Below, in pieces: positions 4,566-64,000 of a stretch of 64,000 nucleotides of DNA; position 1 is the stretch's first letter; every line of letters begins with the position of its first letter. The DNA comes from a virus: the UHGV virus genome UHGV-0176771. One strand, 5' to 3'. A model generated the notes under the pieces. That model did not search any database. It was not told where the DNA came from and saw only the letters and a list, made by a program, of their open reading frames with translations. The translations under genes and the position numbers were made by a program.

Positions 4566-5774
4566 ATGAATTTTGAAATGACAGGAAGACTTAGCATCTC
4601 GAAGGAAACAGAGAAGTTTAAACCATGGGAAGAGAAAACTTATGATTCTGGATGGGTGAAACGACGGTTACTATTTAATGTTACCTGTGGAGATAATAGA
4701 CACATGTTGGCTGTAGATGATGGTTCATTTTCAGACGGACATGGTGATGTGTACACATTTAGTAAAGCAACAATTGATGAATCTGGAAATAAAAAGAAAG
4801 GTGAATCAATGATTATTCCATTTAAAGAGAGACTTACTTCTCCGAAGATTGCAGAGGTAGCAGAATTTAAAAAATATATTTTCGATCTTGAGAAACCAGG
4901 AAGAAGATATGGACTTGAGAAAGCTTCTGAAAGACTTAAAGAAGGAAGAAATTTAACAGATGAAGAACTGAAAGATTTGGGTCTTGAGAATGAATCAGAA
5001 GTTACAGAAGCACTCGAAAAGAGTAAAAAGAAACGCCATGAGTTTATCACAAAATGGGATTATGCAGAGTTTATTAAAAAAGTAATCGATAGTGGAAAGT
5101 ATTCAGATGCAAAATTCTTTATTCGTGGAAATGGAGAGTATTCTTACTCTGAAAACAACGAAAGAGTATATGAATCATATGTTCCTACCCGTATTTATCT
5201 TGCCGCAGACGATGCAGAGGAGAGTTCAACTGCTACCGTAAACATTCTGTTTAATAGTGAGAGTCTTGACACAATGAGTGCAGACGAGAAGAAGAAATAT
5301 TACGTAAATGGATGGATGATGGAATACGACAATAACAGAAGAGGTAATATCCCGGTTCCGGTTACTGTGACAATCCCACTTCCGGGAGACGACGCGGATC
5401 AGAAAGCAAAACGTAGAGTAGAGTCGCTGAAACATAAATTTGCAGTAGACGATGAATCTATCAAAGAGTACGGAGTCGTAGTGAATATGTTGAACGGCGC
5501 ACAGAAAACAGAAATCACAGAGGATATGCTTACAGATGAACAGAGAGATGATCTTGAATGTGGTCTTATTACAATGGATGATATTAGGGCTGAACTTGGA
5601 GGAAGTGTTTATGGTGAACGAATTCGTGAATATGAATTTGTTAAACCTGCAAGAGGATTTACAAAAGGAAGACAGGATACTGTTTACACAGTAGAAGACA
5701 TGGTTATCAGACCAATCGAAGAAACTCTTCCAGAAGGAACCGAAGACTTATTCGATGATGATGATGATCTTTAA
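4566..5774 (+). CDS. Putative ssDNA-binding or recombination-associated protein with acidic C-terminal tail (DLFDDDDDL)
   Basis: Strong RBS AAAGGAGA. Acidic C-terminus is typical of phage SSBs. Sits immediately upstream of the Sak4-like ATPase. Fold not verified. Confidence 0.3.
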   Translation: MNFEMTGRLSISKETEKFKPWEEKTYDSGWVKRRLLFNVTCGDNRHMLAVDDGSFSDGHGDVYTFSKATIDESGNKKKGESMIIPFKERLTSPKIAEVAEFKKYIFDLEKPGRRYGLEKASERLKEGRNLTDEELKDLGLENESEVTEALEKSKKKRHEFITKWDYAEFIKKVIDSGKYSDAKFFIRGNGEYSYSENNERVYESYVPTRIYLAADDAEESSTATVNILFNSESLDTMSADEKKKYYVNGWMMEYDNNRRGNIPVPVTVTIPLPGDDADQKAKRRVESLKHKFAVDDESIKEYGVVVNMLNGAQKTEITEDMLTDEQRDDLECGLITMDDIRAELGGSVYGERIREYEFVKPARGFTKGRQDTVYTVEDMVIRPIEETLPEGTEDLFDDDDDL

Positions 5775-11698: not shown

Positions 11699-14600
11699 AT
11701 GAACTATAAAAATTTGATTGAAAAAATTATTCCAACTCTAACATTTAAGTTTCCGTATTCAGTCGATGATTATGCCGAAAATTTATACTTAGAAAATTAT
11801 CATTGTCATAAAGATTTCAGTAACGTAAGTACGGCAGATTGTGCTGAATCAATTGAAAATTACGCAAATAGAATTCATCAATTTGGAACAAAGTGTTTAT
11901 TTTCTGGAGACCATGGTTCCCAAGGAAATCAGTTCTATGTATATAAAGTTGCAGAAAATGAAAAACTGAAATACATACATTCCTGTGAAGCATATTGGGT
12001 AAAAGACAGAAAAGAAAAAGATCGAGCAAATTGCCATATGGTTATTGCTGCGAAGAATGCGGAAGGAAGAGAAGACATAAACTATGCGTTGTCTATTGCA
12101 AATGAAGATGGGTATTATTATAAACCAAGAATTGATTTAGATTTGCTTTTTAATATCCCAAAAGACAATGTGATTGTAACTTCAGCATGTATATCTGGAT
12201 GGAATTATGAGGATGCTGAAGAAATCTGGCTAAAAATACATGATTATTTTGGCGATAATTTTTTTCTTGAAATACAATATCATAATACGGAAAAGCAAAA
12301 ACGTTTAAATGAAAGAATTTTATCTCTAGCAAAAAAACATAATATTCAAATTATTTGTGGGTTGGACAGTCATTATGTAAAAGATGAAAATTCTGTTAAA
12401 AGAGATCAGATTTTAAAATATAAAGATATATCTTATCCAGATGAGTATGGATGGTATATGGATTATCCAGACACAAAAACAGTAATTTGCAGATTAAAAG
12501 AACAAGGAGTTTTATCAGATGAAGAAATCATGAGATCCATTATGAATACAAACATATTTGTTTCTGAATGCGATGAAATTGTCCTTGATAGAACGTTCAA
12601 GATCCCAAGTGTTTACAAAGGCAAAACTTACGAAGAAAAATGCAGAGTATATAAGAATCTTCTAAATGTTGCTTATGCAAAAGAAAAAGAAAAATCAAAA
12701 GAAAAAGCAAATGGAATTCGATATGAAGCGAAAGAAGTAATAGAATCTAATGTTGTTGATTACTTTTTGACAAGCCAAAGAATAGTACATGATGCGGTTA
12801 ATAACGAAGGTGGAATTTTGACCAGAACGTCCAGAGGAAGTGCTGCTTCATTTATTACAAATAAGCTACTGGGATTAACAACAGTCGATAGATTTAATGC
12901 AGATATACCGATTTATCCTGAAAGATTCCTAACAAAAGAGCGTGTGCTTGCAGGTCAAATGCCCGATATTGATTTGAATGTTTCAGCCCAGGAACCATTT
13001 GTAAGAGCTACAAAAAAGCTATTAGGAGAACATGGTTGTTACCCGTTGATGGCTATAGAAAAATTAAAAGAAAAAGCAGCGTGGCAATTGTACGCGGGAG
13101 TAAATGATGTTAGTCCGGAAGACGCTAATAAAATTTCGAAATATCTTGATGAGTATAATAAAGCATTAAAATACGCTGAAGATGATGAGAAAGATGATAT
13201 CCATGTTGAAGACTTTATTCCAAATGAATATGTAGAATTATTTAAAAGAAGTAATGAGTATCAAGGGATTACAATAAATTTAAAGGTTCATGCTTGTGGT
13301 CACTTTATTTTTGATGGAGATATCAGAAGAGAAGTAGGATTGATCAGTGCAGTATCTGAAACAACTGGAAAGAGAACTTTATGTGCTGCCATAGAAGGTG
13401 GAATGCTGGATGAATTTGGATATGTAAAAGAAGATTTTCTCATTGTAGATAGTGTGTCTCTTACATATAAATTCTTTAATGCAATAGGAAGAGAAGTTCC
13501 TACATTTGATGAGCTAAGACATATGATTGACGGAGATAAATTGACATGGGATATCTATGAAAAAGGGATCACTTGTTGCATTAATCAGTGTGAAAAAGAA
13601 GCTACTACAAATAGAGTAAAGAAATATAAACCAAAAACTTTGGCGGAGTTAAGTAGCTTCATTGCAGCCATTAGACCAGGGTTTGCTTCGCTTTTAAGTA
13701 CGTTTTTGAATAGAGAATATTATACAACAGGTGAGTCTAAAATTGATGAGTTATTACAAGATACTGCTCATTTTATGATTTACCAAGAATCAATTATGAA
13801 AGTTTTATCATTCCTTAAATTGGAAATGGGGGAAACATATGGAGTAATTAAATCTATTTCAAAGAAGAAATTAAAAGGCGAAAAAAAGAAAAACTTACTT
13901 AATGATTTGACGGATTCCTGGATAGAAGAGTTTCATAATAAAAATAATTTCAACAATGTTTGGAATGTAATTGAAGACTCTGCCAGATACGCATTTAATG
14001 CTCCTCATGCTTACAGTATGGGAGGGGACAGTGCATATCAGGCGTGGTTCAAGGCACATTATACAGCAACGTTTTATGAGGTGGCGATTAACCACTATCA
14101 AGAAAAGGGAAATAAAGATAAAATCGATGCACTCATTAAAGAAGCAATTAAGTTTTTTGGCTATAAATTTGGTGACTATGAATTTGGGGTAGATAATAGA
14201 AGAGTTGTTATAGATGAAGAAAATAAAATTATTTATCCAAATTTATCTAAGATAAAAGGATTTGGAGAAGGTGTTGCGGAGGCTTTGTATAATATTGGAA
14301 AACAAGATTACGAAAATTTTATAGAAGTAATTTCAGCAGCTCTTAAAAATTCTATTAGTAAGACTATTTTGAAAAATCTTATTAAGATAAAATATTTCAA
14401 AAAATATGGAGATGTCAACACTCTTTTAGCCACTTTTAAATATTATAACCTATTAAAAGGAGGGGAGACTAAAGTAATTTCTAAAGAAAAGGCAATGGAT
14501 AATAATTTAACTTTTGATTTGCTTAATAAATATGGGAATGAAACGGAAAAACAATTCAATAAAATTGATTCAAAAGGGTTACTAAATGAATTGATAAATA

Positions 14601-14989
14601 CGATTGAGTACAAACCTTTGACAGTAAAAGAAGAATTAGACAATCAAAAAGATGTTCTTGATATCATTACATATGTAAATCCAAAAGTTAGTAAAAGATT
14701 ATATTATGTCGATATTTTGGATGAAAAGAAAACGGTTACTAATATTTCTTTATATGAGATATTCAGTGGGAAAACTCGTAAAGTCAAGATGTGGACAAGT
14801 CAATTTTCAAGAAATCCATTTTCAGAAAAAGACTTATTAAACATACATGTTATTGAAAAGAAACATAAGAAAGAGCCTACAGGAGAAATAAATCCAAAGA
14901 CAGGAAAGAAAATCTATGCAGATGTTCCGGACAAATTTGAATACTGGTTGAAAGCTTACACAATTAAAAGAGAGGATGATGATTTATAA
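11699..14989 (+). CDS. dnaE: DNA polymerase III alpha subunit (DnaE-type, N-terminal PHP domain)
   Basis: PHP motifs (HCHKDFSN) and polymerase active-site PDIDLN. 1096 aa. GAGGTGG RBS. Confidence 0.85.
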   Translation: MNYKNLIEKIIPTLTFKFPYSVDDYAENLYLENYHCHKDFSNVSTADCAESIENYANRIHQFGTKCLFSGDHGSQGNQFYVYKVAENEKLKYIHSCEAYWVKDRKEKDRANCHMVIAAKNAEGREDINYALSIANEDGYYYKPRIDLDLLFNIPKDNVIVTSACISGWNYEDAEEIWLKIHDYFGDNFFLEIQYHNTEKQKRLNERILSLAKKHNIQIICGLDSHYVKDENSVKRDQILKYKDISYPDEYGWYMDYPDTKTVICRLKEQGVLSDEEIMRSIMNTNIFVSECDEIVLDRTFKIPSVYKGKTYEEKCRVYKNLLNVAYAKEKEKSKEKANGIRYEAKEVIESNVVDYFLTSQRIVHDAVNNEGGILTRTSRGSAASFITNKLLGLTTVDRFNADIPIYPERFLTKERVLAGQMPDIDLNVSAQEPFVRATKKLLGEHGCYPLMAIEKLKEKAAWQLYAGVNDVSPEDANKISKYLDEYNKALKYAEDDEKDDIHVEDFIPNEYVELFKRSNEYQGITINLKVHACGHFIFDGDIRREVGLISAVSETTGKRTLCAAIEGGMLDEFGYVKEDFLIVDSVSLTYKFFNAIGREVPTFDELRHMIDGDKLTWDIYEKGITCCINQCEKEATTNRVKKYKPKTLAELSSFIAAIRPGFASLLSTFLNREYYTTGESKIDELLQDTAHFMIYQESIMKVLSFLKLEMGETYGVIKSISKKKLKGEKKKNLLNDLTDSWIEEFHNKNNFNNVWNVIEDSARYAFNAPHAYSMGGDSAYQAWFKAHYTATFYEVAINHYQEKGNKDKIDALIKEAIKFFGYKFGDYEFGVDNRRVVIDEENKIIYPNLSKIKGFGEGVAEALYNIGKQDYENFIEVISAALKNSISKTILKNLIKIKYFKKYGDVNTLLATFKYYNLLKGGETKVISKEKAMDNNLTFDLLNKYGNETEKQFNKIDSKGLLNELINTIEYKPLTVKEELDNQKDVLDIITYVNPKVSKRLYYVDILDEKKTVTNISLYEIFSGKTRKVKMWTSQFSRNPFSEKDLLNIHVIEKKHKKEPTGEINPKTGKKIYADVPDKFEYWLKAYTIKREDDDL

Positions 14990-16740: not shown

Positions 16741-17019
16741 ATGTTTAAATTTTTTAAATGTAATCACGAATATAAAGAAGTCGGCAAATATTACACAATC
16801 GTAATGGATTATGACTGTAAACATATTATGGCTGTTTCCGTATCCGAGTGTGCAGTTTGTGGAGAACGAAAATCTGATGTTGTATATGAAGAAACTATTT
16901 CTTCAAATTCAGAATACGAAGTTGATGACGTGATTCAAACATTAGAAGATAGAGGGTTTTGTCCGAAATTAAACTTCATGTTGGATGATTATGAACGAAG
17001 AAAAAATGCAAAGGAGTGA
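16741..17019 (+). CDS. Hypothetical CxxC protein
   Basis: ORF only. Confidence 0.3.
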   Translation: MFKFFKCNHEYKEVGKYYTIVMDYDCKHIMAVSVSECAVCGERKSDVVYEETISSNSEYEVDDVIQTLEDRGFCPKLNFMLDDYERRKNAKE

Positions 17020-17023
17020 TTTG

Positions 17024-18976
17024 ATGGACAAGGTCAAAAGAATTAAAGAGCTTGTAGAGCAGCTAAACGAATATAGAGATGCTTACTATAATGAAGCAAG
17101 ATCTGATGTTTCTGATGCAGAATACGATAGATTATTCGATGAATTATCGGAGCTTGAAAATGAAACTGGTGTTGTGTATACGAATTCGCCAACACAGTCC
17201 GTTGGGTATGAGGTGAAATCTGAACTAGAAAAGGTTAAACATTCCCATCCAATGCTATCACTTGATAAAACAAAATCTGTAGATGATTTAGTAAAATTTG
17301 CTAGAGATAAAGACTGTATTTTAAGTCTGAAAATGGATGGATTGACATGTCTTCTTACATATGAAAATGGAGAGTTGGTTCAGGCAGAAACTCGTGGAGA
17401 TGGAGAGATTGGTGAATTAATTACTCACAATGCAAGAGTATTTGATAATATTCCGTTATCGATTGATTATAAAGGTCATTTTGAAATCGAAGGAGAAGCT
17501 ATTATTACATATGAAGACTTTGACAAAATCAATAAGTCATTGCCAGACGATAAAAAATATAAGAATCCGAGAAATTTAGCTTCTGGATCTGTACGACAAT
17601 TAGACAGTAAAATTGCAGCACAACGTCATATCAAATTTATTGCGTGGAAAGTGCCAACAGATATTGCGTCAAGTAGTTTTATCAATAGATTGCAGTATGC
17701 TGTAGAATTGGGATTTGACACTGTTCCGCTTTTGCCTATTCGTGGAAATTGCAATGCTGAATTTATTAATATTGTGGTAGAACAATTACGAAAACGTGCA
17801 AATGAAAAGAGCTTTCCGATTGATGGCTTAGTGGCAACGTACAATGATATTACATACGGAGAGTCACTTGGAATGACAGGTCATCATCCCAAACATTCTA
17901 TTGCATTTAAATTCGCAGAGGACTCAGAAGAAACTGTATTGAGAGAAATTGAATGGAGTATGGGCAAGACAGGAACTCTTACGCCAGTAGCAATTTTTGA
18001 TTCAGTTGATTTGGCAGGAACATCAGTGAGTAGAGCTTCATTGCACAACATTAGTATTATGAAAGAATTGAATATTTCTATCGGATCAACAGTAACAGTT
18101 GTAAAGAAGAATGAAATTATTCCACAGATTATTTCCTGCGATGCAAATGCTATGGATGCAGATATTCCTACAACATGTCCTGTATGTGGCGGAGAGACTC
18201 GGATTGTAAAAGAAAACGATTCAGAAGTTTTAATGTGTGTTAATCCTCATTGTAAAGGCAAGCTACTAGGAAGAGTTTCTCATTTTGTTTCCAAGAAAGG
18301 TATGGATATCTCAGGTTTGTCAGAAGAAACAATTAAGAAACTCATTGAACTTGGATGGATTGCAGAGATTACAGACATCTACAATCTTGACCAGTATTAT
18401 GATAGGCTTTCTACGATGTCTGGATTTGGAAAGAAATCAGTAGACAAGTTAAGAAAATCAATTGAAAACAGCAAAACCGTAAGATTGGATAAATTTATTG
18501 CATCATTAAGTATTCCTGGGATTGGAACATCACAGTCAAAAGAGCTGGTTAAAGCTTTTGGTGCATGGGACAAGTTTAGGGATGCCAGCGTTGGTTATTA
18601 TAACTTTACGCAGCTTGACGGTTTTGGAGACGTATTAAATAACAATATTCATTCTTGGTTTGAAGATATGAGTAATATTGCAGATTATCTTGCTTCTCTT
18701 ATGACGTTTGAATCAGAAGACAATTCTAAAACAAGCAATTCTTTGAATGGCAAATCATTTGTTGTTACCGGAAAAGTATATAAATTCAAAAATCGTGATG
18801 AAGTAAAAGAAGCTATTGAAAAATTCGGTGGGAAAGTAACAGGTTCTGTAACAAAATCCACATTTGCTTTAATCAATAACGATATAGAATCCAATAGCAG
18901 TAAAAATAAAAAAGCAAAGGAACTTGGTGTTCAGATTATTAACGAAGAACAGTTAATTGAGATGTTGGGCATGTAG
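17024..18976 (+). CDS. ligA: NAD-dependent DNA ligase LigA
   Basis: KxDG adenylation motif (LKMDGL), four-Cys zinc finger (CPVCG ... CVNPHC), HhH region and C-terminal BRCT. AAGGAG RBS 7 nt before ATG 17024. The longer ORF from 16985 overlaps the upstream gene. Confidence 0.9.
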   Translation: MDKVKRIKELVEQLNEYRDAYYNEARSDVSDAEYDRLFDELSELENETGVVYTNSPTQSVGYEVKSELEKVKHSHPMLSLDKTKSVDDLVKFARDKDCILSLKMDGLTCLLTYENGELVQAETRGDGEIGELITHNARVFDNIPLSIDYKGHFEIEGEAIITYEDFDKINKSLPDDKKYKNPRNLASGSVRQLDSKIAAQRHIKFIAWKVPTDIASSSFINRLQYAVELGFDTVPLLPIRGNCNAEFINIVVEQLRKRANEKSFPIDGLVATYNDITYGESLGMTGHHPKHSIAFKFAEDSEETVLREIEWSMGKTGTLTPVAIFDSVDLAGTSVSRASLHNISIMKELNISIGSTVTVVKKNEIIPQIISCDANAMDADIPTTCPVCGGETRIVKENDSEVLMCVNPHCKGKLLGRVSHFVSKKGMDISGLSEETIKKLIELGWIAEITDIYNLDQYYDRLSTMSGFGKKSVDKLRKSIENSKTVRLDKFIASLSIPGIGTSQSKELVKAFGAWDKFRDASVGYYNFTQLDGFGDVLNNNIHSWFEDMSNIADYLASLMTFESEDNSKTSNSLNGKSFVVTGKVYKFKNRDEVKEAIEKFGGKVTGSVTKSTFALINNDIESNSSKNKKAKELGVQIINEEQLIEMLGM

Positions 18977-21098: not shown

Positions 21099-23270
21099 AT
21101 GAAAGTAATTAAGAGAGATTGTACAGAGGCAAGATTTGAAAAGAAGAAAATTTATGATGCTATTATGAAAGCTATGAAAAATGGTAGTGGTATCATTAAG
21201 CCTAAAATTGCAGAATCTATTGCGGATGAAATTTATGAAGAAAATAAGGACAAATCAGATATAAGCATTTCTGAAATTGAATCGTTGGTATATGACAAGT
21301 TGATCACTAAAAAGCAAAGGCTAACGGCAAAAGCATATGAGGGATATAGAAGTATCCGAGAATTTCAAAGAGAAAATATGAATACAACAGATGAACAGAT
21401 CTCAGAGCTTTTGAGTGGATCAAGCGATTATTGGAATAATGAGAATTCAAATAAAAATCCAAAATTGCTCACAACTCAGAGAGATTATATGGCTGGGATT
21501 TTAAGCACGGATATCACAAGAAGGTTTTTACTTCCTCCTGAAATTGTACAAGCACATGATGAAGGGATGATACATTTTCATGATGCAGATTATTACGCAC
21601 AGAATGCAATTTCAAACTGCTGCTTGATTAATCTTGAAGATATGTTGCAGAACGGAACATGTATTAATAAGGTAACGATTGACAAACCACATAGGCTAAT
21701 TACTGCAACCACAATTGCAACACAAATCATAACTGCAGTTACGTCAAGTCAGTATGGGGGCGCTACGATTACATTAACACATTTAGCTCCGTTTGTAAGA
21801 GATAGCTTTAATATCTATATGGAGAAATATAAAAACAGAGGATTGTCTTATCAGCAATGTCTTGAATTTTCGAGAGAAGATATTAAAAAAGAAATTGCAG
21901 ATTCAGTACAGACCTTCAATTATCAGGTAAATTCTATGACGACAACAAATGGACAAAGCCCCTTCCTCAGCGTATTTATGTATATTGGAGAAACTGAAGA
22001 GTATAAAGAAGAACTTGCAATGCTTATTGAAGAATTTTTAAAGCAAAGAATCCAAGGATTAAAAAATGAAGAAGGCGTATATGTTACACAGGCTTTCCCC
22101 AAATTATTATACGTGTTAGAGCCATGTAATATTGACAAAGACGGAAGTTACTTCTATTTGACAAAACTGGCAGCAGAATGTACAGCAAAGAGAATGGTTC
22201 CTGATTATATTTCCGAAAAAATTATGCTTGAAAACAAGATTGATAAAAATGGAAATGGAAATGTTTATGGATGCATGGGCTGCAGAAGCTTTCTTACCAC
22301 ATACATTAACAAGTCTGGTAAACCGCAGTATTATGGACGGTTTAATCAAGGCGTTGTTACATTAAATTTAGTAGATATTGCATTGTCATCTGGAGGAGAC
22401 ATGGATTCGTTTTGGACGATTTTTGATGAAAGAACGGAATTGTGCCACAAAGCATTGCGTCTTAGACATGAAAGACTGGAGGGTACTTTATCAGACGTGG
22501 CACCTGTTTTATATCAAGACGGAGCATTTGCAAGACTTAAAAAAGGAGAGAAGATTGACGAGCTTTTGCATAATGGATATTCAACAATTTCTCTTGGATA
22601 CGCCGGGTTATACGAATGTGTAAAATACATGACAGGCAATTCTCACACTGACAATGGAGTCGGAACATCATTTGGATTGGAAGTTATGAGCAAGCTTAAT
22701 GATAAATGTAGTGAATGGAAAGGAAAAGAAAACATTGATTACAGTTTATATGGCAGTCCTATTGAATCAACAACATATAAATTTGCCAAATGTTTAAAGA
22801 AAAGATTTGGAGTGATTGATGGAATTACAGATAGAGACTATATTACAAATTCATATCATGTTCCTGTATTTGAAGAGATTGATCCGTTTGAGAAATTAGA
22901 GTTAGAGAGTAAATTTCAGAAGTTAAGTCCGGGTGGTGCAATCAGCTATGTAGAATGTGCAGATCTAACTAGAAATACAGATGTAGTAATTGAAATTATG
23001 AAATTTATTTATGAGCATATCATGTATGCGGAGTTAAATACTAAATCTGATTATTGCCAGGAATGTGGTTATGACGGTGAGATTAAAATTATTGATGAAG
23101 ATGGAGAACTTATCTGGGAATGTCCGAATTGTGGTAACAGAAATAAAGATAAGATGAATGTCACTAGAAGAACATGTGGATATATTGGTACAAATTTCTG
23201 GAATCAAGGAAGAACAGAAGAGATCAAAGAAAGATATGTTCATGTAGACGACCATGAAGCGGAGGTATAA
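21099..23270 (+). CDS. nrdD: Anaerobic ribonucleoside-triphosphate reductase NrdD (N-terminal ATP-cone, C-terminal glycyl-radical motif RRTCGYIG)
   Basis: ATP-cone start (VIKRDCTEARFEKKKI), Zn-ribbon CxxC pairs and Gly-radical motif near the C-terminus. 723 aa. Confidence 0.9.
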   Translation: MKVIKRDCTEARFEKKKIYDAIMKAMKNGSGIIKPKIAESIADEIYEENKDKSDISISEIESLVYDKLITKKQRLTAKAYEGYRSIREFQRENMNTTDEQISELLSGSSDYWNNENSNKNPKLLTTQRDYMAGILSTDITRRFLLPPEIVQAHDEGMIHFHDADYYAQNAISNCCLINLEDMLQNGTCINKVTIDKPHRLITATTIATQIITAVTSSQYGGATITLTHLAPFVRDSFNIYMEKYKNRGLSYQQCLEFSREDIKKEIADSVQTFNYQVNSMTTTNGQSPFLSVFMYIGETEEYKEELAMLIEEFLKQRIQGLKNEEGVYVTQAFPKLLYVLEPCNIDKDGSYFYLTKLAAECTAKRMVPDYISEKIMLENKIDKNGNGNVYGCMGCRSFLTTYINKSGKPQYYGRFNQGVVTLNLVDIALSSGGDMDSFWTIFDERTELCHKALRLRHERLEGTLSDVAPVLYQDGAFARLKKGEKIDELLHNGYSTISLGYAGLYECVKYMTGNSHTDNGVGTSFGLEVMSKLNDKCSEWKGKENIDYSLYGSPIESTTYKFAKCLKKRFGVIDGITDRDYITNSYHVPVFEEIDPFEKLELESKFQKLSPGGAISYVECADLTRNTDVVIEIMKFIYEHIMYAELNTKSDYCQECGYDGEIKIIDEDGELIWECPNCGNRNKDKMNVTRRTCGYIGTNFWNQGRTEEIKERYVHVDDHEAEV

Positions 23271-53978: not shown

Positions 53979-56900
53979 TTAAAATGATCTGTGTACACCA
54001 GCTCTTTTGGCTTCTTTGGTAAATTCCTTTGTGACTCCTTCAATTACTTTCTTCATGCCAGGATAGGTTTCCTTGTCAATACTTCCTTGAACTTCTATCA
54101 TCTTGTCATAGTAATTATTTGTTACATTAGGTCTTTCACCAAGGCTGTTTGCAATGTTCAGTGAACTATAAATATCATCTTTGTGTTCACCAAGATCCAT
54201 AATGTTCTTTGACAGTCTTGCATTTACAACAGCATCACCATAAGTAATTGTCGTAGCTGTTCCTGTCAATGCACCACGCCTAACCATCATTTCAGGATTG
54301 TTTCCTTCATTGATACGAACAATTTCTGAACCATTTACAAATTTCTTTGTTCCAGACGCATAACCTCTTAACTGGTCAAGACTTACCCAACCAAGGTCAC
54401 GCTCTCCGAAACGAGGTGTTCTACTAATATGATATTTCTTCTGTGCCCAATTAGCATTATTAACACTGGTAATATATACTTCCTGACCACGCATTTCATT
54501 TCCAGCAGGGGACTGACCGTCAGAAGAGTAGTAGTAATCTCCACTTGCGAATATTACTTTGTCTCCAACATTTGGTACTCCGTCTCCGCCACCATTATTA
54601 CTCGGTGGTGGTGTAGTTGGTTTTGGTGGTTCTGGTTTTGGTGTGACAGTTACTGCACAACTATTTGTTGAAGTAGCTCCTCCACCATCTGTTGCAATTG
54701 CACTAATGGTAGTGCTACCTGCTTTGACAGCATGAACAGTTCCATTTGCAACTGTAGCAACATTTGGATTTGATGACACCCACTGCAAGCTTTTATTTTT
54801 TGCATCATTTGGTCTGATTGTTGCCGAAACTGTGCCTGTAGAACCTTCCTGTATAGAAAGTGTCCCCGGACTTAATGTAATTTCTGCAACTGGTCTGTTT
54901 GATAAGTCTGGATTCTTACTGATATCACCTTGAATCTGGTCATTCTTATCCTGTGTTGTTCCGTTCTGAATCTGACCGGTATTCACATCCGTCCAATCAT
55001 CCGGTCTATAATTAGGAGCATTAGTCATACTATTGTCAACTTGATCTTGTGCTCCATTACTTGTACCAAGATTTCCAAGATTATTGGATAAATCTTTATT
55101 CGGTACAAATCCTGTACTGTTAATGATTTGCTGAATTTTGTCATAAGCCTGTTGGTAGTTTCCAACAATATTTCCAAGCATTTGAGATATTACTTGTTCC
55201 TGCTTTTCAGCATTTCGAGTAACATCATATAATGTTTCCTCCAGCTGCTTATCGAGATCCTCACTCAAACCGTCCAGACCATTCTGGTGAACATCATATT
55301 CATGGTCATCACGGGTGTCTTGCATTTCTTCTTCGGCATCTCTAAGTTGTGCTTTTAACCTCTTTAATTCAGCCTGTGCACTCGCATTATTCGTGCCTTC
55401 GAGTGCAGCAATCTGAGCTTTCAATGTATTCACATCTCTAGCCTGTTTACGCAGAGTCTTATTGTAATCAGCATTTTTCTTTTTGATATCCAATAATTCC
55501 TTCTGCTTATCAATCGATTTTTGAGCAACTTCATTCTCTTGCTCAAGCATCTTTGTATACAGATCAACAATAGAATCTTTGTAGTCTTCTACAATATTAA
55601 CAGAGCTTGAAATCTGATTGAGAAATTCTTTTTGCTGCTCCTTATATTCACTTGTTGAGATATTCCCGTTCTTTAAATCCTCATCAAGCTTCTTCAATGC
55701 CTCTTGATAATTCTTAATCTGTTGTTTCGCAGCATTCATACCCTGACTAATCAAAGCCAAATTTGCAATACCATCAAGTGTTAATCCACCATTTTTCCCA
55801 ACAAAAGCATCACTATTTAAAAGTCCTCTTAAATCATCTGTCTGGTCAATCAGATCACCTAATGCCTCCTGTCCATCAAAGAACGGTTGCCATCTTACTT
55901 CCCAGATTTTATTTTTGAGGTCTTCAATATTATTCATTGCATCAAAGATAGCGTCATCGAGCTTTTCCATCTCTTCCGCATATTCATTATATTTGTCAGA
56001 ACCGACATCATATTTTGCCTGATCTCGTAATAGCTCTTGTCTCTTATTATAATTCGCTTGAATCTGTGCATTGGCATTATCAAGTTGCGCCTGTAAATCT
56101 TTTTCAGATATTTGTTCGCCTTTTGACTCTGTAAGGTCTGTGTTGTTCTCAAGACGTTTTGCAGTTCTGTCTAATTCATCGATTGCCTGTTGCAATTTCA
56201 ATAAATCAAGTTCTCTTAGTTGGTCTTGCAATTCGATCAATGTTGTTTCAGCTTCAGCAGCTTCTTGTCTGAATCCGTTTAATGCAGCTTGAGCTTCAAA
56301 CCATTCCGTTGAGTATTCAGCCATATACCCATTTGCCATGAGTTTATTGATTTCATCTTGATATGATTTAATCTGTGACTGTAATTTACCTGCAACATCC
56401 TGTTGATTTTTAATAGATTCTTGCAGAGAGCCATACATATTGTCGGAATATGCAGATTCTCCTTTTGCAGCCGCTAGTTCACGTAATGCTTCCTGATAAT
56501 CTACAGCAGAGGACTCAATTCCAGTCATCATATCGATGTAATCTTCAATATTATCCAATGCTGTCTGCGCCAGTTCACTCTGTTTGTTTAAGAGGTCATC
56601 GTACTGTTTATTACAGTCTACGAGCTTATCATAATAAGACTGTAGCTCACTGATTATTTTTTGAGTATCATCATCGTATTTTGAAATATCCATAGACCCG
56701 TTCTGAATCTGATGGACGATAAGTGGGTTTATTCCACTCTGTCGCACAATAGAATCAAAATGACTTTGATAAGTCCCAATTGCTTGCTGAGTCCTATTCA
56801 GTAGTTCACTGTTCTTAGACATTGCCTCATACAGTTTCTGTTGCTTATCTGGGAGGTGTGCGATACGCTCCATTTGACTCATCAATAAATCATACTGTGA

Positions 56901-59900
56901 TTCTAGCCGTTGAAATAACACCTCAACCCAGTCTGTATATCCAGATACTGCTTCTGATAATTTCTCTGCCGCTTCGGATGTATCAGATGCTGCTCTTGAA
57001 AGGTTATTTGATGCGGAGTTAAGATTGTTGGAAGTAGAAGAGTTCCCAATTCCAGAAATTCCTGATTGACTTCCAGATCCTCCAATGCCAAAACTTCCGC
57101 CACCACTTCCATTTGCAAAAGCAGTTCCAGAAGCGTAAGCTCCACCCATGAAAACTTTGGCACGAGAATTTACATATCCTTTAGAAAGTAGATCTCGTGT
57201 CTGAAGGTGGTTGAAGATTATGTCTCCACGTTTTAGATTTACGAATTCTGCACCATTGTCTCCAATGGTTGTGAATTTTCCTCCGCGTACAAGAAGTTCT
57301 GTTCCTAGTTCACCAACCAAAGCACGCTCATCTTTTTTTACACCCCAATCACCTTGGTCAAATGCGTGACCAGATTTAGGATTTACAGTTCCATCTGCAT
57401 GAGCAGTTCCGTTAAAACGCGGCATCATCAGTCTGCCATTTCCTACGTTTGTACCAGTACTTACTGTTTCAACTCTATGTGTATAAATATAAGTATGTGC
57501 AGCACTTCCGTCTAAACCTGACAGCATTCCACTTACTCCAGAAATTACCGGTGTAGCATGATCGCTAGCCTCGATATTTGTATTTGATTCATCAGGGATA
57601 CTTTCGACACTTCCAGTTACATTTTCTGCCGTTAATGAAGCAGAAGCATCTGTTGCAGTAATAACAGCTGTCTTTTGTTCCGGTGTTAAAGAATTCCAAA
57701 GACCAATCACATATGTAGCTTGATCTTGTGCAGTCATTGATGTAAATTTCGGATTTGCGCTCAAACCGTTCCATAAAGTAATAATGCCTGTTGCATGGTC
57801 TTCTCCGATTAATGGAACAGATTTTTGTATGAGTTCTTTCTTATTAATATCATCAATTACAGGAGTAGCGTTATCTACGGCATCTAAATGTACAGGTACG
57901 CCAGGAAGGTTAAGACCGTGTATTGCCTTTTCCATTACGAACTGAAGATCATTATCTACTTCATAAGCAATTGTTCCATCCGCAGTTATAACAGGCTTCA
58001 ATGCTTTTTCTACACCATCTATCTCAGCAGTATAAGTAACTGTTCCGTCTTCATCCTTAACGGCTTTAACTACAGACTCAACATTAGAAACATCTGCATT
58101 GTATTTAATAGTCTGATTTGCTTGAAGATTATTTAATGCTGTGTTCATTTCTTCTGTAGAATTGAATGTTTTAACTTCAATTTCCGGTGAAAGATTCTTT
58201 ATATCTTCGAGCACTTCTTCTTTGTTTTTTACTTTTAGTTCTGCATCAAGTTCAATGCCGTTTTCTTGTGCTAATTGACGAATTTGATCTTCCATCAAGC
58301 TAACCACTTCGTCTGTGTTTTCCCCATAGGCATTTTCTCTGAGAATCCTATCACGTTCTTCTTTTAAACTACTAATTGCTGTTTTTGCCTGTTCAACTTG
58401 TTTTGCATAATCATCTGCAGATTTTGTTATGAGTTGACCAAGATTAGCTTGGGTTTGCTGTAAGTCAGATTCAAGTCCTTTAATCTTTTCGCGCTGCTGA
58501 TCGATTGCTGTACTGTCTGCCCCAGTTGCTTCGAGCCTCGCCAATTCCGCTTTCGCATTCACGAGTTCTGTGCTTAAGTCAGATACACGTTTTGCACCCT
58601 GTTCAACAGAACCGACAAAGTTATTACTGAAGCCATAATCTTCAAGACGACCAAACATGTCCATAAAAAATTCAAAACCTACGCCCATATTTGTCGCAGC
58701 TTGCTCTAAATCTTCTATATTATATGTCCATTGCTCTGTTCCGTCAGCAACTGTCTTAAATGCCATTCCTTTGCTTTCAAGATCAGTTAAGAAATTATGT
58801 ACGCCAGATGCATCTTCTGTCAGATAGCGAGCAGCCTTAGCGTAATTTTCAGCAAAGTTTACAGCATCTTCTGCACCAGTAGGAGAGAAGTAGGCGGCTC
58901 TCTTTTTAAAGTCGTCGGTTCCGATCAACCCTTTATCAAACATTTCTTTTGCTTGCTCAAGATATGATTTTGCCTGAACATAGTCATCACCGGCATTTTT
59001 AGTTTCGTCAGCAGCACTAATTGCTTCGAAATTTTTATTTGCTTCTAAGTTAATACCAGTCGAAGCAAGTGCTTTTGCATTTTGGATCTCAGATTTTAGT
59101 TGGTTAAATGTGCCCGTAAATTTATCATTTACAACTAAGTCATAACCTTTTTCCAAATCTTCTAATGACAAATCTTTTGCTGCATCGCCATACAGTTCTG
59201 TTAGCTTTGCTAGTTGATCTTCAGACTCTTCAATTACTTTGTCAAAACCAAGAGATTTTTTGAACGCCTTTTGTGCTTTGCTATCATTAGGAAATGCTTT
59301 TTCAAGAGCTGTGTCAATTGTCGATATGTATTCTCCAACATTCAACATAGATGTATCCAGAGTCAACATATCTTTAATTGCCTTTTGTCCTTCTGGTTTC
59401 ATATCTGCCATAGGCTGAATAATTTCGCCATACATGAAAGACATAAAGTCACCACCATAGTCTTTAGCCACGGTTTCGTAATCAATATTATCAACATTAC
59501 CTAAGAATGCATCTTGAATTGATTTATCTAATTTTGTAAAAGTATCTGAAGTTTGCAGATACTGTCCGAGTGACTCTCCCATTTTAGACCATTGTTCTTC
59601 GATAAGAAGTTTTGTTGCAGCTATACTTTTTTCTGCTTCTGCATTTTCAACAGTCATTGAATTTATGGCTTCACTTTTATATTTTGACAGTGTATTTTTT
59701 ATCTCATTTGCAACATTTTTATCGAATCCTGATGTTGATATTGTCACATTGCCTGCATCATCAATAGCCTCTTGCATTGCAACGCCATTATCACTTAAAA
59801 TTTTTGCGATTTCTCTCTGAGCTTTCGCCCTATTTTCTCCATATGATTTTAAGCCTAATGTTATATCACCAGAAGAAGATAATTCGTCAGCATCAATTTC

Positions 59901-60899
59901 CATATCTGCCATCGCTTTATCATTTTTGTCAATGGTATTTTGTAGAGTTTTAATTTTGTCTTCATATTCCTCGATTTGAGCAACTGTGCCTTCGTAATTA
60001 TCCTGCAGACCTTCTCCAATCTTAACATTAGCAGATAGCATCTGCGCGTCATATAAACTCTTCAGACTTGCTGCAGCAGAATCTGCATTGCTACCAAGAT
60101 TAAGAATAGCATTTCCTTGTGCGTCATAACCTTCTACGAGAGATGGGAACTGTGACGCTAACTGATTACTAATATCCAGATACTGTTGATATTCCTCAGA
60201 AGACAGTCCTTTGTTTTTATTCGTTACAGTATCTACATTCTTGCTTAATTCACTGTATTTCTTTGCGACATTCTCTATCGCATCACCTGTCGTTTCAATA
60301 TCATCTGCATTATCTGCAAATGACTGACCAAGTGTGTCCAGAGTATTCTTGCCTTTAGAGAACTCAGCAAATGTCTCATCGATAGAGCTTTTCGCTTCTT
60401 TTCCTTTGGCAATCATTTTTTCTTGACGATGAATGTAGTCATCAATCATAGTAATAACGCCTTGAATCGCTACACCGGCAAGCATACCGATACCTGCGTT
60501 TAAAAGACTTGAACCGATCATTCCTCCTACGTTTTTAAGAGTAGAAGTTACTTTACCAAATTTTGATGTGGATTTAGAAGCTGACTCGATATGCGTATCC
60601 ATATCTTTAATGTTCTTCTTCCCAGAATCAACGTCACCTAAAAATGTAATAAGTTCTTTGTCTGCGTATCCCATAGATTTTGCCCAATCAACCCATTTCT
60701 CAGGTTGATTATCGCCTAATCCTGAAATAACTTTATTTGCTTTTAAAAACTCTTCACTTATTTGTGGAGTTTTATTTTTGTATGCATCAAATAAGCTGAA
60801 CCCAGTATCCTTATCATAGTTGAAAACCGTATAGTTTTGATGTACACTTATATTAAATACTTGCAATATTTTATATAAGGAAGAAAAATATGAGTTCAA
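53979..60899 (-). CDS. Tail tape-measure protein (2306 aa; coiled-coil rich, internal TM segment, Big_2 Ig-like domain, Gly-rich tracts)
   Basis: Size, heptad-rich composition, position upstream of Dit and Tal. True start may be internal. Confidence 0.55.
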
Positions 60900-61363
60900 A
60901 AATTAAATTCTGCGAAAAATGTTCGCAAACAAAAAAGAATATGGAGTCAGTAAATACAAATTATTCAGATGTTGAATCGCTTATTGAATTTGGCAAAGGA
61001 ATGATAATCGGATTTTCAGATGATGTAAAACGTTGTCCATACTGCGATAACGATCTGGAAACCATCAACATGTCCACTGACGATTTCCTAACCATCCGTG
61101 ATGCGTCCAATTGTAATCGAGATTTACTATTTGCAATGATAAAACTGCATGATGAAGATCCAATTGGGTATGAATTAAAAATGGCTCAATTCCGCGAGAT
61201 AGCAGAACGTAAAAAAGCAGAAGATTCCAAACCACGTTGTCCAAAATGCGGATCGACTTCAATCGCAACTGTCAACAAAGGTTATTCACTTCTCACTGGT
61301 TTCCTTGGCTCCGGTAAGCCTATGAATGTATGCCAGAGCTGTGGACATAAGTGGAAGATATAA
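60890..61363 (+). CDS. Zinc-ribbon protein (three CxxC pairs)
   Basis: AAGGAAG RBS. Start diverges from the tape-measure start with a 10-nt overlap. Confidence 0.45.
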
Positions 61364-61388
61364 GAATGTGGCAGGGGAGAACAGAAGT

Positions 61389-61619
61389 TTATTTGTCGAT
61401 TACTCTCTTCAATAATTTCTCATGCTCTCTACAAATAGTATCAAGATCAAATTCTGGCGAAACATCATCTGGAAGTTTTTCTACTGTTTTGTCAGAATTA
61501 ACTTGATATACATCACCGTTCCAGACAAACTGATTTTCGGAAATGTACAGCCAATCAGATTCAACGGAGTGTTTTGGATACGACAGAATAGTCATCGACT
61601 CGTCTAATTTTTGTTGCAT
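61389..61619 (-). CDS. Hypothetical protein
   Basis: ORF only. Confidence 0.3.
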   Translation of the reverse strand: MQQKLDESMTILSYPKHSVESDWLYISENQFVWNGDVYQVNSDKTVEKLPDDVSPEFDLDTICREHEKLLKRVIDK

Positions 61620-61726
61620 TTTTATGTCATCAATTTTTAATTTGATTTTATATAAATCTATAACTAATTGTTTTTCGTCATCTGTTAACTTAATAATTTT
61701 AACTCACCACCTTTGGAGGAAATTTT

Positions 61727-62488
61727 ATGAAAGTATTAGATATTGTTCCATTATACTTAAAATATCAAAAAGAATACCCAAGAAATGATTATCCTGAACT
61801 ATCAGTAGATAACCTTGTGTATGTTCATGATGTTGATTTTTTCTTTCAATTTAATTCATCTAAATTATATGATAATCAATATGAATTAAAAATTAACATG
61901 GAAGCGTTTGCATTAAATGATACATATTTGAAAAGCATATTGTATCACGAATTCACGCATATATATGATTCTCTTATGTTCAAAAACAAAACAATAGATG
62001 AGTATAAAAGTATTTTGTCATATTACTCGGAAATACATTCATCGTACATCGAAATGAAAAGTAGGATAAAAGAAATATCGAATTCTATATATGTACAGGA
62101 TGAAAAGATCGCAATACCAATGGATATGCACATACAGCAAAAATATTTAAATATTAAAAAAGAATGGTCAAATTATATTGAGTATAATCCAGAAACCATC
62201 ACAGATAAAATAAAACGGCTCTGTTATTTTGTTGGACATTATAAATATCTGAAAGATAATTACGATATACCTGAATTTGAAATTGTATCACCATATTCCG
62301 AAGAAATATACAACATTATAAATGATTATTCTAATGAAGTGTATGATTTACAAGAACATTTTGATAAAATCATTCAAAAGTCAAAACGTCATAAAGACAG
62401 CCAAAATTTTGAGAAACTGCAATCAATTTTGGACGAAGATGCAATAAATCAAAATGCATTATTAAAATTATTCATAAATAAGGAATAA
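61727..62488 (+). CDS. HExxH-motif protein; putative zinc metallopeptidase (ImmA/IrrE-like possibility)
   Basis: LYHEFTHIYD contains HEFTH. GGAGGAAATTTT RBS-like sequence upstream. Confidence 0.4.
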   Translation: MKVLDIVPLYLKYQKEYPRNDYPELSVDNLVYVHDVDFFFQFNSSKLYDNQYELKINMEAFALNDTYLKSILYHEFTHIYDSLMFKNKTIDEYKSILSYYSEIHSSYIEMKSRIKEISNSIYVQDEKIAIPMDMHIQQKYLNIKKEWSNYIEYNPETITDKIKRLCYFVGHYKYLKDNYDIPEFEIVSPYSEEIYNIINDYSNEVYDLQEHFDKIIQKSKRHKDSQNFEKLQSILDEDAINQNALLKLFINKE

Positions 62489-62613
62489 TTGTTAAATGCG
62501 GATCTACGTCAATCACAGCAGGACAGAAAGGATATTCGTTCTGGACTGGATTCTTAGGAAGTAATAAAACAGTCAATAGATGCAGTAACTGTGGTCATAC
62601 ATGGAAACCGTGA
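62482..62613 (+). pseudogene. Start-less diverged duplicate of the last ~40 codons of the zinc-ribbon gene 60890..61363 (KCGSTSITAGQKGYSFWTGFLGSNKTVNRCSNCGHTWKP against [39 protein letters not shown])
   Basis: In-frame translation read by eye. No ATG in frame. Confidence 0.5.
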
Positions 62614-62645
62614 TGGGAGAGTAGTAGTTAGAAATAGAGGTGTTT

Positions 62646-62945
62646 CTACAACATTTCTGTTTCTAACTCACGTATCCTACACATTAGGTCATCACATGAT
62701 TTTTGCTGCTTTTTCAATGTGTATTCACATGGATAATCTGTTTTGTGAAGACCAAAATTATTTTCGATTTTTTCATTAAAATCTTTATGCATTTGGTTCA
62801 ATATCTTTCGATTGTTTTTGTTTAATGAATATAAGAATATAATCATTCTACATTTTGTAAAGTGTAAGAATGTATATATTTTGTAATGCAGTAAGTGTAA
62901 ATTTTTCAATTTTAGGTTCACCACCTTTACCAGTAATTTAAACAT
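62646..62945 (-). CDS. Hypothetical protein (N-terminal part low-complexity; true start may be internal)
   Basis: ORF only. Confidence 0.2.
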   Translation of the reverse strand: MFKLLVKVVNLKLKNLHLLHYKIYTFLHFTKCRMIIFLYSLNKNNRKILNQMHKDFNEKIENNFGLHKTDYPCEYTLKKQQKSCDDLMCRIRELETEML

Positions 62946-63139
62946 ACATCATCTTGTATATTAAAATACTTCCAGTATGGAATATAATCAATAGTGGAAC
63001 CAATATGGATGGTATCTTGTATTTTTGATGACTCTTCTTCACTTAATTTATAGATTTCAAATATATCATCAAGTTCTAGATTTTTTGTAACACTGTTTTG
63101 CATGTGGAACTCACCTTCTTTTACAATATTTATATGCAC
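62927..63139 (-). CDS. Hypothetical protein
   Basis: ORF only. Confidence 0.25.
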   Translation of the reverse strand: MHINIVKEGEFHMQNSVTKNLELDDIFEIYKLSEEESSKIQDTIHIGSTIDYIPYWKYFNIQDDVCLNYW

Positions 63140-63533
63140 AAAAAAGAGACATCAATTAAGATGCCTCTTGATTTAAAATTATTTCACTTATGAGGGCGCA
63201 ATGCCTCATCTCTCTGATAAGAATAAAACTTATCTCTCTATCGTTTTACGACAAATCAGAGCAGTAAATATTACTATTTTTATCAAAATAAATCTCATAG
63301 TTTGGGATTATGCCATCCCAATTTTAAACAGTCATAAACCCACGAACAAATACACATCATATAAGGCAGGTAAAATAATATCATTTGTTACACTGTTGTT
63401 TGTCCATTTTTATTTAATAAAACACAGTCAAATGTTGTTTTATCTCTAGCAATTTCACAATTACATATCAATTCATCAAGAATTAAATTATTTTCAATAT
63501 TATCATTTTTCATCTCGTTTTTTTCAATTAAAA

Positions 63534-63998
63534 TCATTTCCAATTTATATTCCACCTTTTTAAAGTATCAATTGTTACATTCGGATTTAGATATTTCATA
63601 ATTTCTAACCCTTTATATTTTACTTCTGTTTCGTCATGAATGTTCCAAAAATGATGTACAATTTCTTCTATATATGCATAAGTTATAATTAAAAAATTAT
63701 TTGCCTTCCTTAATCTATTCATATGATAAATGATTAATGAAAATGTAGATGCACAACATTTTTCATCTTCTTCGTCAATTATTAATTCGTCACCGCCTAA
63801 AAAAACAACACTTGCCTTTTTGATACTTTCTTTGGTTATTCCATCTTTTTTCATGACAACTGCTGCGTATTTTAACACAAGTGCAAAAGCTTTCAATTCA
63901 TCTATTGACATTTCACAAGTTGATATTAATTCTATTTTGTCTTCAAATATATCTGGTTTTACAATATCGTGTATTGGAACAACATTTCTTACTCCCAT
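63534..63998 (-). CDS. Hypothetical protein (154 aa), start at the window edge
   Basis: ORF with ATG at 63998-63996. Confidence 0.35.
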   Translation of the reverse strand: MGVRNVVPIHDIVKPDIFEDKIELISTCEMSIDELKAFALVLKYAAVVMKKDGITKESIKKASVVFLGGDELIIDEEDEKCCASTFSLIIYHMNRLRKANNFLIITYAYIEEIVHHFWNIHDETEVKYKGLEIMKYLNPNVTIDTLKRWNINWK

Positions 63999-64000
63999 AT

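Follow-up and report, generated by a model that had tools for sequence, protein, structure and literature searches.

A start-less copy of a zinc-ribbon gene end marks a probable mosaic joint in the accessory island of a large gut phage

How the end of one gene comes to stand, without a start codon, directly behind another is the question raised by an accessory-gene locus of UHGV-0176771, a virus genome of which we analyzed one stretch of 64,000 nucleotides (nt), hereafter the window. On its plus strand, the locus carries an intact zinc-ribbon (ZR) gene of 157 amino acids (aa; 60890–61363) and a 253-aa gene (61727–62488) for a zincin-like predicted metallopeptidase with the motif HEFTH, referred to here as the HExxH gene. 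Five nucleotides past the HExxH stop codon begins a start-less remnant of 39 codons and a stop (62494–62613), whose counterpart is formed by the last 39 ZR codons and stop (61244–61363). The remnant translates as KCGSTSITAGQKGYSFWTGFLGSNKTVNRCSNCGHTWKP followed by the stop. An earlier note, made from the letters of the window alone, had described this duplication after the HExxH stop and its missing start codon, and it placed both correctly. We argue that the arrangement is probably a mosaic joint in an accessory island, founded by recombination between phages carrying different ZR alleles, and that the gene cassette enclosed by the two copies has since been exchanged homologously.

The two copies align without gaps in codon register, with 76 of 120 nt (63%) and 25 of 39 aa (64%) identical, and the identities fall as 27, 30, and 19 of 40 at the three codon positions. 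The same 120-mer slid across the window gives a background of 31.9 ± 5.1 matches and a next-best score of 54/120, placing the true match ~8.7 standard deviations above background; the similarity is thus collinear over all 120 nt and not confined to a generic zinc-ribbon motif. The remnant lies in the −1 frame relative to the HExxH gene, and its frame holds no ATG, GTG, or TTG after the upstream in-frame TAA (62479–62481). It opens inside the first zinc knuckle (VKC in place of CPKC), so that one of the four cysteines is absent; the conserved CxxC spacing noted earlier therefore holds for the distal knuckle but not for the truncated first one. Because it has no start codon, sits in the −1 frame, and lacks the first cysteine, the remnant cannot form a ribbon, and from these features we read it as a probable untranslated pseudogene fragment at a mosaic joint.

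Comparison with related viral contigs (labeled L; L001–L003 are from IMG/VR) identifies the copies as two alleles of one gene end. The first, allele Ca, spans 61225–61381 on the plus strand, including the stop codon (61361–61363) and ~18 nt of 3′ flank. Its protein sequence is 100% identical to the ZR ends of L001–L003, and its DNA is 94% identical to a start-less fragment in L009. The second, allele Cb, is the remnant, which matches functional ZR 3′ ends of other phages at 97% (L009) and 95% (L004) protein identity. The copies do not represent a fresh duplication, since each is 86–100% identical to alleles of other phages and they are only 63% identical to each other. The idea that a second ZR paralogue was truncated by the insertion survives in altered form: a gene end has indeed been displaced, but it is the alternative allele of the 3′ end of the same gene, one that in relatives forms a functional ending for the very N-terminal part found here.

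These relatives also reveal what the locus looks like without an insert. The alignment of L004/L005 to the window spans the tape-measure and ZR genes, and the only ZR gene there has a Cb end. In L089, a ZR N-terminal part 97% identical to that of the window runs straight into Cb and the DNA downstream of it (window 62494–62928); the N-terminal part shared by L004/L005 and L089 is 97–100% identical at the nucleotide level. L009 has a Cb-ended ZR gene followed by the same hairpin and the same 99-aa open reading frame (ORF), m99, as the window. The hairpin (62626–62668, inverted repeat I8, with 19-nt arms and a 5-nt loop) lies between the remnant and the convergent m99 (62646–62945, minus strand). 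Cb-type ZR genes natively carry this hairpin on their 3′ side, as after the intact one of L009, and m99 stands directly 3′ of the Cb-type gene in the relatives lacking the insert. The Cb end, hairpin, and m99 are contiguous in both L009 and L089, and window 62494–62928 is collinear with L009 331–765 (90.8%) and L089 3355–3789 (81.7%). L004/L005, L089, and L009 are thus empty sites, which agrees with the suggestion in the earlier note that the locus bears the footprint of a recombination or insertion event.

The same comparison bears on a truncated tandem paralogue, in which the cassette once lay between two complete ZR genes, the downstream one later losing its 5′ part by deletion. Complete tandem ZR paralogues do exist (three in L010, two in L011, and three in L018), and in L027 a complete ZR gene follows an HExxH gene. 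However, in L004/L005, L089, and L009, the N-terminal part known from the window is itself completed by the remnant-type end with its 3′ flank, a second N-terminal part has left no trace, and the deletion would have to halt within 5 nt of the HExxH stop and do so with equal precision in ~10 independent lineages. We consider this origin unlikely.

The limits of relatedness between the window and individual relatives place the exchange boundaries at the edges of the two copies. Relative to L004, there is one difference in 60400–61224 (825 nt), and divergence sets in at 61225, the first codon of the C-terminal module. Relative to L001, only four differences occur in 61382–62504 (1,123 nt, covering the cassette genes; 99.6% identity), versus 16 differences in the ~160 nt of the Ca copy and its 3′ flank (Fisher p = 6e-12 against this core) and five, all synonymous, in 117 nt of the remnant (Fisher p = 6e-4 against the core); the two flanking ZR ends are 4–10% diverged. 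Homology to L001 is lost after 62618; beyond this point, up to 62928, the resemblance is to L002, L003, and L009. All four tract boundaries (61225, ~61381, ~62505, and ~62618) therefore coincide with edges of the ZR-module copies. Beside the nearly identical tract 60400–61224, the tape-measure gene is only ~90% identical to that of L004, with a ~75% patch at 59050–59500, suggesting that the 5′ end of the tape-measure gene and the 5′ part of the ZR gene were acquired together in a separate, recent exchange.

The intact ZR gene is accordingly a chimera of an N-terminal part and a Ca-type 3′ end, and the same N-terminal part is found in the database joined to either allele, to Ca in proteins P0126 and P0128 and to Cb in P0127 and P0144. 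In these phages, the C-terminal module is found behind several unlike N-terminal parts; one example is a 272-aa protein (L087:1199–2017) with an N-terminal double zinc ribbon, an unrelated middle, and the same C-terminal module. A separate peculiarity is an in-frame TAG in the ZR gene of L024 (5645–5866), which reads DIIEYELKMP-stop-FRAQ where relatives have glutamine within IIEYELKMSQFRSQ; it marks a nonsense pseudogene or else hints that this phage reads TAG as Gln. The ZR protein has at least 424 homologues in Lachnospiraceae phages and metagenome-assembled genomes (MAGs) and matches PHROG 2546 and 3845, both annotated as of unknown function. Its AlphaFold2 model, with a predicted local distance difference test score (pLDDT) of 86, consists of zinc ribbons linked by helices and has generic zinc-ribbon structural matches only.

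What separates the two copies is a two-gene cassette (~61369–62493) made up of a 76-aa minus-strand ORF, sm76 (61389–61619), a divergent intergenic region, and the HExxH gene. The earlier note gave the order of ZR gene, HExxH gene, and remnant correctly but missed sm76, which is conserved together with the HExxH gene in L001–L003, L011–L013, and L090 and is its constant partner. No significant match to sm76 was found in Pfam, PHROG, or PADLOC. Homology to the cassette begins at 61369 in L090 and at 61389, the sm76 stop, in L011–L013, extending into the HExxH gene in both cases with different left neighbors. In L011–L013, the cassette is 82% identical at the nucleotide level from the sm76 stop nearly to the HExxH stop, with a different ZR paralogue upstream and only five remnant codons (KCGST) after the HExxH gene. 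In L090, it lies 1.6 kb from the ZR gene, with another ORF between them. The ZR gene also occurs without the HExxH gene in L004/L005, L089, and L091, and Ca-type ZR genes occur without the cassette in L084–L088. From these contexts, it follows that the ZR and HExxH genes are not an obligate pair, contrary to the tentative proposal of a two-gene accessory unit, and that Ca is not a fixed part of the cassette. The traveling unit is instead sm76 plus the HExxH gene, self-contained. We rejected Ca as a cassette component on the same distribution (Ca alone in L084–L088; cassette without Ca in L011 and L090), and a strictly repeated three-part unit was dropped because sm76 and m99 are not homologous.

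The HExxH gene is preceded by a conserved upstream box containing the ribosome-binding site, TCACCACCTTTGGAGGAAATTT (61704–61725, plus strand). The box is shared by HExxH paralogues, preceding those of L002 (263 aa) and L009 (239 aa), and reads TTCACCACCTTTGGAGGA. Half of it, TTCACCACCTTT, recurs at 62914–62925 on the plus strand with no HExxH gene behind it: after CACCACCTTT the window diverges, whereas L002 and L009 continue with GGAGGA..ATG and an HExxH paralogue. This half box, noted over 62914–62940, is a second scar, of cassette loss or replacement. The ribosome-binding box and the terminator-like hairpin at 62626–62668 are the only regulatory-looking features of the locus, where a promoter scan returned 13 candidates against 16.6 expected from shuffled sequence.

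These observations can be joined into a sequence of events. On the simplest view, two phages with different ZR alleles recombined, leaving an intact chimeric ZR gene, the cassette, and a displaced Cb end. The chimeric gene has its 5′ two-thirds from one lineage and its end from the Ca allele of a conserved ~45-codon C-terminal zinc-ribbon module. Behind it comes the cassette, with sm76 on the minus and the HExxH gene on the plus strand, and then the orphan Cb with its native terminator-like hairpin. The cassette is now probably swapped between genomes by homologous recombination, with the two copies of the ZR module serving as homology arms.

An active mobile element could produce a similar picture, if a site-specific enzyme homed the cassette into ZR genes and brought a replacement 3′ end with it. 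Campbell-type insertion-duplication and integrating elements that supply a replacement 3′ end for their target gene are known, and, as here, such integration leaves one intact copy and one displaced copy without promoter or start, with direct repeats flanking the insert. The cassette genes do recur beside ZR fragments in many lineages, and the ends of the insert are sharp, lying on the left just past the ZR stop or at the ribosome-binding box and on the right at the HExxH stop, with the target gene intact. Unlike a Campbell-type integrant, the locus has no integrase or att site, and the replacement end Ca does not belong to the cassette. Searches of Pfam, PHROGs, and PADLOC found no nuclease, integrase, or transposase domain in sm76, the HExxH protein, the ZR protein, m99, or the next three ORFs, and the larger cassette protein has a predicted zincin fold. 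Neither terminal inverted repeats nor a target-site duplication occur at the locus, and the insertion point is not fixed, as fragment starts vary across lineages from the linker to mid-ribbon. Single-stranded DNA folds of both copies on both strands are no better than those of shuffled sequence (z from +0.15 to −1.2), and Rfam at E ≤ 1 yields no intron or other RNA family in 60000–64000. A homing-type insertion, which the earlier note had offered as one of its two explanations, is thus highly improbable. An integron-type gene cassette was likewise rejected, having neither an attC-like structured site in these folds nor an integrase near the locus.

Scars of this kind recur in related phages. 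For 35 viral loci, six-frame translations cut from stop to stop were searched with custom profiles of the ZR module and of the HExxH family. Arrays in which complete ZR gene(s) are followed by an HExxH gene, a ZR fragment, a further HExxH gene, and a further ZR fragment occur in L019, L024, L025, L026, L028, L030, L035, L010/L029, and L009/L020, the last two pairs each being one contig. Among ~20 non-redundant HExxH lineages, ~10 distinct junction types place a ZR-derived segment 0–16 nt from the HExxH stop, in frames 0, +1, and −1 in three, three, and four cases. Some break at the end of the N-terminal helix (MSQF..), others in the linker, and others as far in as mid-ribbon. Most of the fragments are start-less, a few have a chance ATG (L019, L025, and L026), and some are decaying, with Cys replaced by Tyr in L035, Gly by Trp in L003, and one truncated in L024.

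The scars extend to other gene pairs. Directly 3′ of a DUF2513 gene, L004 and L090 carry a ZR tail fragment (L090:4128–4217 and L004:7167–7223), a 17-residue tail ending in NIGKQWKCNNCKSYF and a stop after the DUF2513 stop. It is followed by a 226-aa protein with a HEYIH motif that falls outside the HExxH family studied here. In protein P0066, the HExxH protein is fused in frame to a nucleoside 2-deoxyribosyltransferase fragment (Pfam E = 7.5e-7), and its sister P0071 is fused to a zinc ribbon, making the 3′ end of the HExxH gene a recurrent breakpoint. The scars are therefore not specific to one gene pair.

Could the remnant nevertheless be functional? Recoding or reinitiation might yield it as a mini-protein or as a C-terminal ribbon on the HExxH protein, or it might serve as a silent donor or homology arm. 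Its frame is open with mostly synonymous differences from other alleles, and an exhaustive protein search found in-frame HExxH–ZR fusions (P0050, P0067, P0071, P0073, and P0116). The chance ATG of some fragments elsewhere would be usable, and the native hairpin that the fragment brings along could terminate HExxH transcripts. On the other side, the remnant of the window has no start codon and lacks one zinc ligand, and the frame relation to the HExxH gene differs among lineages. L009 holds half a ribbon, HExxH alleles that are 75% identical keep only the five codons KCGST, and the fusions look derived, as unfused sister sequences exist. We regard a function for the remnant as very unlikely. 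A programmed −1 frameshift was rejected specifically: the overlap 62482–62488 (GGAATAA) has no slippery X XXY YYZ heptamer, nor is one present in the 10 nt from the −1-frame stop (62479–62481) to the HExxH stop, and the frames vary among lineages.

Several observations weigh against recombination between ZR alleles as the whole explanation. Relative to L002, the window switches relatedness near 62060, within the HExxH gene, and crossovers are thus not limited to the ZR copies. In almost all lineages, the right joint falls 0–10 nt from the HExxH stop, closer than random illegitimate joining would place it unless selection or some mechanism were at work. All the relatives compared are metagenomic contigs. 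As to polarity, the founding event may have been the entry of the cassette into a Cb-type gene, or else the empty sites may have arisen secondarily, by loop-out deletion from one copy to the other. A tandem duplication from inside the ZR gene to the HExxH end would also create such a junction. Finally, the remnant is still an open frame, with a ratio of nonsynonymous to synonymous differences (pN/pS) of 0.0–0.2 against other alleles; we attribute this to repeated recombination with functional alleles, which it fits without proving, and selection on the fragment fits as well.

A bolder interpretation is that the ~130-nt coding ZR C-terminal module is a dedicated recombination linker organizing the cassette array. 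Start-less copies would then be retained to let cassettes move between co-infecting genomes and to supply a terminator, and they may also be silent donors by which the expressed ZR gene has its 3′ end reshuffled. The free combination of Ca and Cb with different N-terminal parts can be cited for it. We consider a dedicated linker doubtful, though conceivable. Mosaic joints and morons at the gene boundaries of tailed phages, described by Hendrix, Juhala, and colleagues, offer a plainer comparison. As in those cases, relatedness shifts sharply at gene ends, an oppositely oriented accessory unit sits in the structural-gene region, and relatives occur with and without the insert. Unlike those cases, a recognizable duplicated gene end is left behind, and the same kind of scar is found in ~10 lineages. 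The scar is thus of an ordinary kind, well resolved, and its recurrence across many lineages is the only unusual aspect.

The closest described phenomenon is the modular shuffling mediated by PeSL motifs, of which the linker would be a coding counterpart. In T4-type phages, mobile ORFs of the hyperplastic regions are framed by these repeats, each a promoter with a terminator (Arbiol et al. 2010, PMC2839356; Comeau et al. 2014, PMC4122927). Both systems place non-essential ORFs in a variable island bounded by a repeated conserved sequence. In both, the insertions, deletions, and replacements that distinguish close relatives map to the repeats, and inter-repeat recombination has been proposed to move the cassettes. 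A bounding repeat is evident here in the four tract boundaries at copy edges and in the arrays of cassettes and ZR fragments in L019, L024, L025, L026, and L030. The repeat itself differs, being the protein-coding 3′ end of a multi-copy ZR family and not an early promoter with a terminator stem-loop. In addition, the downstream copies here are start-less gene fragments, and the hosts are Gram-positive Lachnospiraceae. Excised mini-circles are a feature of PeSL shuffling.

What, then, does the cassette encode? The HExxH family comprises 117 clusters at 50% identity among 1.84 billion representatives, with members of 230–260 aa, and H74, E75, H78, D81, and E102 are invariant in 70 family sequences. 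An AlphaFold2 model of the window protein (pLDDT 93.3; predicted template modeling score, pTM, 0.88) has helices at residues 65–84 and 90–113 following strands at 30–57. In the model, the HExxH motif lies on a helix and a glutamate, the third zinc ligand, on the next, beside a small β-sheet, as in a zincin of the gluzincin type. A Foldseek search of the Protein Data Bank (PDB) gave a local match only, to the minigluzincin abylysin (4jiu; probability 0.97, 78 columns, root-mean-square deviation 3.1). Among the viral models of BFVD, two gut-phage proteins named 'Lethal factor' and 'Peptidase' match at template modeling scores of 0.62–0.70, along with partial SprT-like matches. A sequence-profile search of the PDB with the family alignment returned nothing meaningful, and no Pfam family reached its gathering threshold. 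The window protein scores below threshold against M76 (E = 0.11; 12.7 bits, cut-off 25.2), and SprT, M76, and PhageMetallopep give sub-threshold matches in five, four, and three of the 70 family members, with best E-values of 1e-4 to 4e-3. A tblastn match of an HExxH paralogue at window 5040–5303 is spurious, showing neither the HExxH motif nor a profile match.

Minigluzincins such as abylysin, SprT-like proteins, M76/Atp23, and PhageMetallopep share with the window protein an HExxH helix followed by a helix with an invariant glutamate. The HExxH protein differs from such minimal zincins by an extra invariant aspartate (HExxHxxD) and by a helical C-terminal domain of ~140 residues without a match. 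An ImmA/IrrE-like protease, as the earlier note had proposed, is not borne out. The HExxH protein resembles ImmA/IrrE (Peptidase_M78, COG2856) only in the HExxH motif with a downstream glutamate and in small size, and Peptidase_M78 (PF06114) matches neither the window protein at E ≤ 1 nor any of the 70 family members at E ≤ 0.01. The HExxH gene also differs from ImmA/IrrE in location, lying in an accessory island of the structural region and not in a lysogeny switch, and it has no adjacent helix-turn-helix (HTH) repressor: sm76, the ZR protein, and m99 contain no HTH domain of the XRE or other type in Pfam or PHROGs. On its model, the HExxH protein is best called a minimal zincin-like metallopeptidase of an uncharacterised phage family, with a helical C-terminal domain. 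Its likeliest identity is that of a soluble enzyme, a zinc metallopeptidase of the minimal SprT/M76/minigluzincin type, which would act on a host or phage protein. Nothing at the locus supports the defense or anti-defense role suggested earlier; the cassette proteins have no match in PADLOC, and a weak partial match of m99 to Csn2 in that database (E = 5e-4) was disregarded.

The surroundings place the locus in a variable accessory-gene island adjoining the tape-measure gene of a ~160-kb phage of gut Lachnospiraceae. Contigs related to the window measure 150–215 kb, and ZR homologues are found in Lachnospiraceae MAGs and in Mediterraneibacter gnavus records. The MAG contigs retrieved with the ZR alignment carry no HExxH gene in the flanks examined. 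A cultured-phage database gave no match to 60000–64000 by megablast or to the HExxH protein by tblastn, and the ZR protein has weak matches there in Clostridium phages only. The plus-strand island splits a block of minus-strand tail genes, with a tape-measure-like ORF of 2306 aa (53979–60899, minus strand) on one side. Homologues of this ORF from L011 and L084 contain a Big_2 match, and L011 codes for a second PhageMin_Tail protein (494 aa, L011:10293–11777) a few kb past the island. Farther away, the replication and nucleotide module (706–23270) is like that of large phages. Its products include an HD-domain protein resembling CCA-adding enzymes and poly(A) polymerases (706–2043), a DnaB-like helicase, a DnaE-type DNA polymerase III alpha subunit (11699–14989), an NAD-dependent ligase with a BRCT domain (16985–18976), and the anaerobic ribonucleotide reductase NrdD (21099–23270).

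With its breakpoints resolved, the locus is a clean case of accessory-gene gain and swapping in large uncultured gut phages, in which exchange tracts end at the conserved 3′ end of a multi-copy gene family and start-less scars are left there. It also counsels caution in annotation, as start-less fragments and occasional in-frame HExxH–zinc-ribbon fusions are recombination products and not native architectures. Finally, it defines a small, phage-restricted zincin-like family with a constant 76-aa partner, a candidate pair for tests of host takeover or counter-defense.

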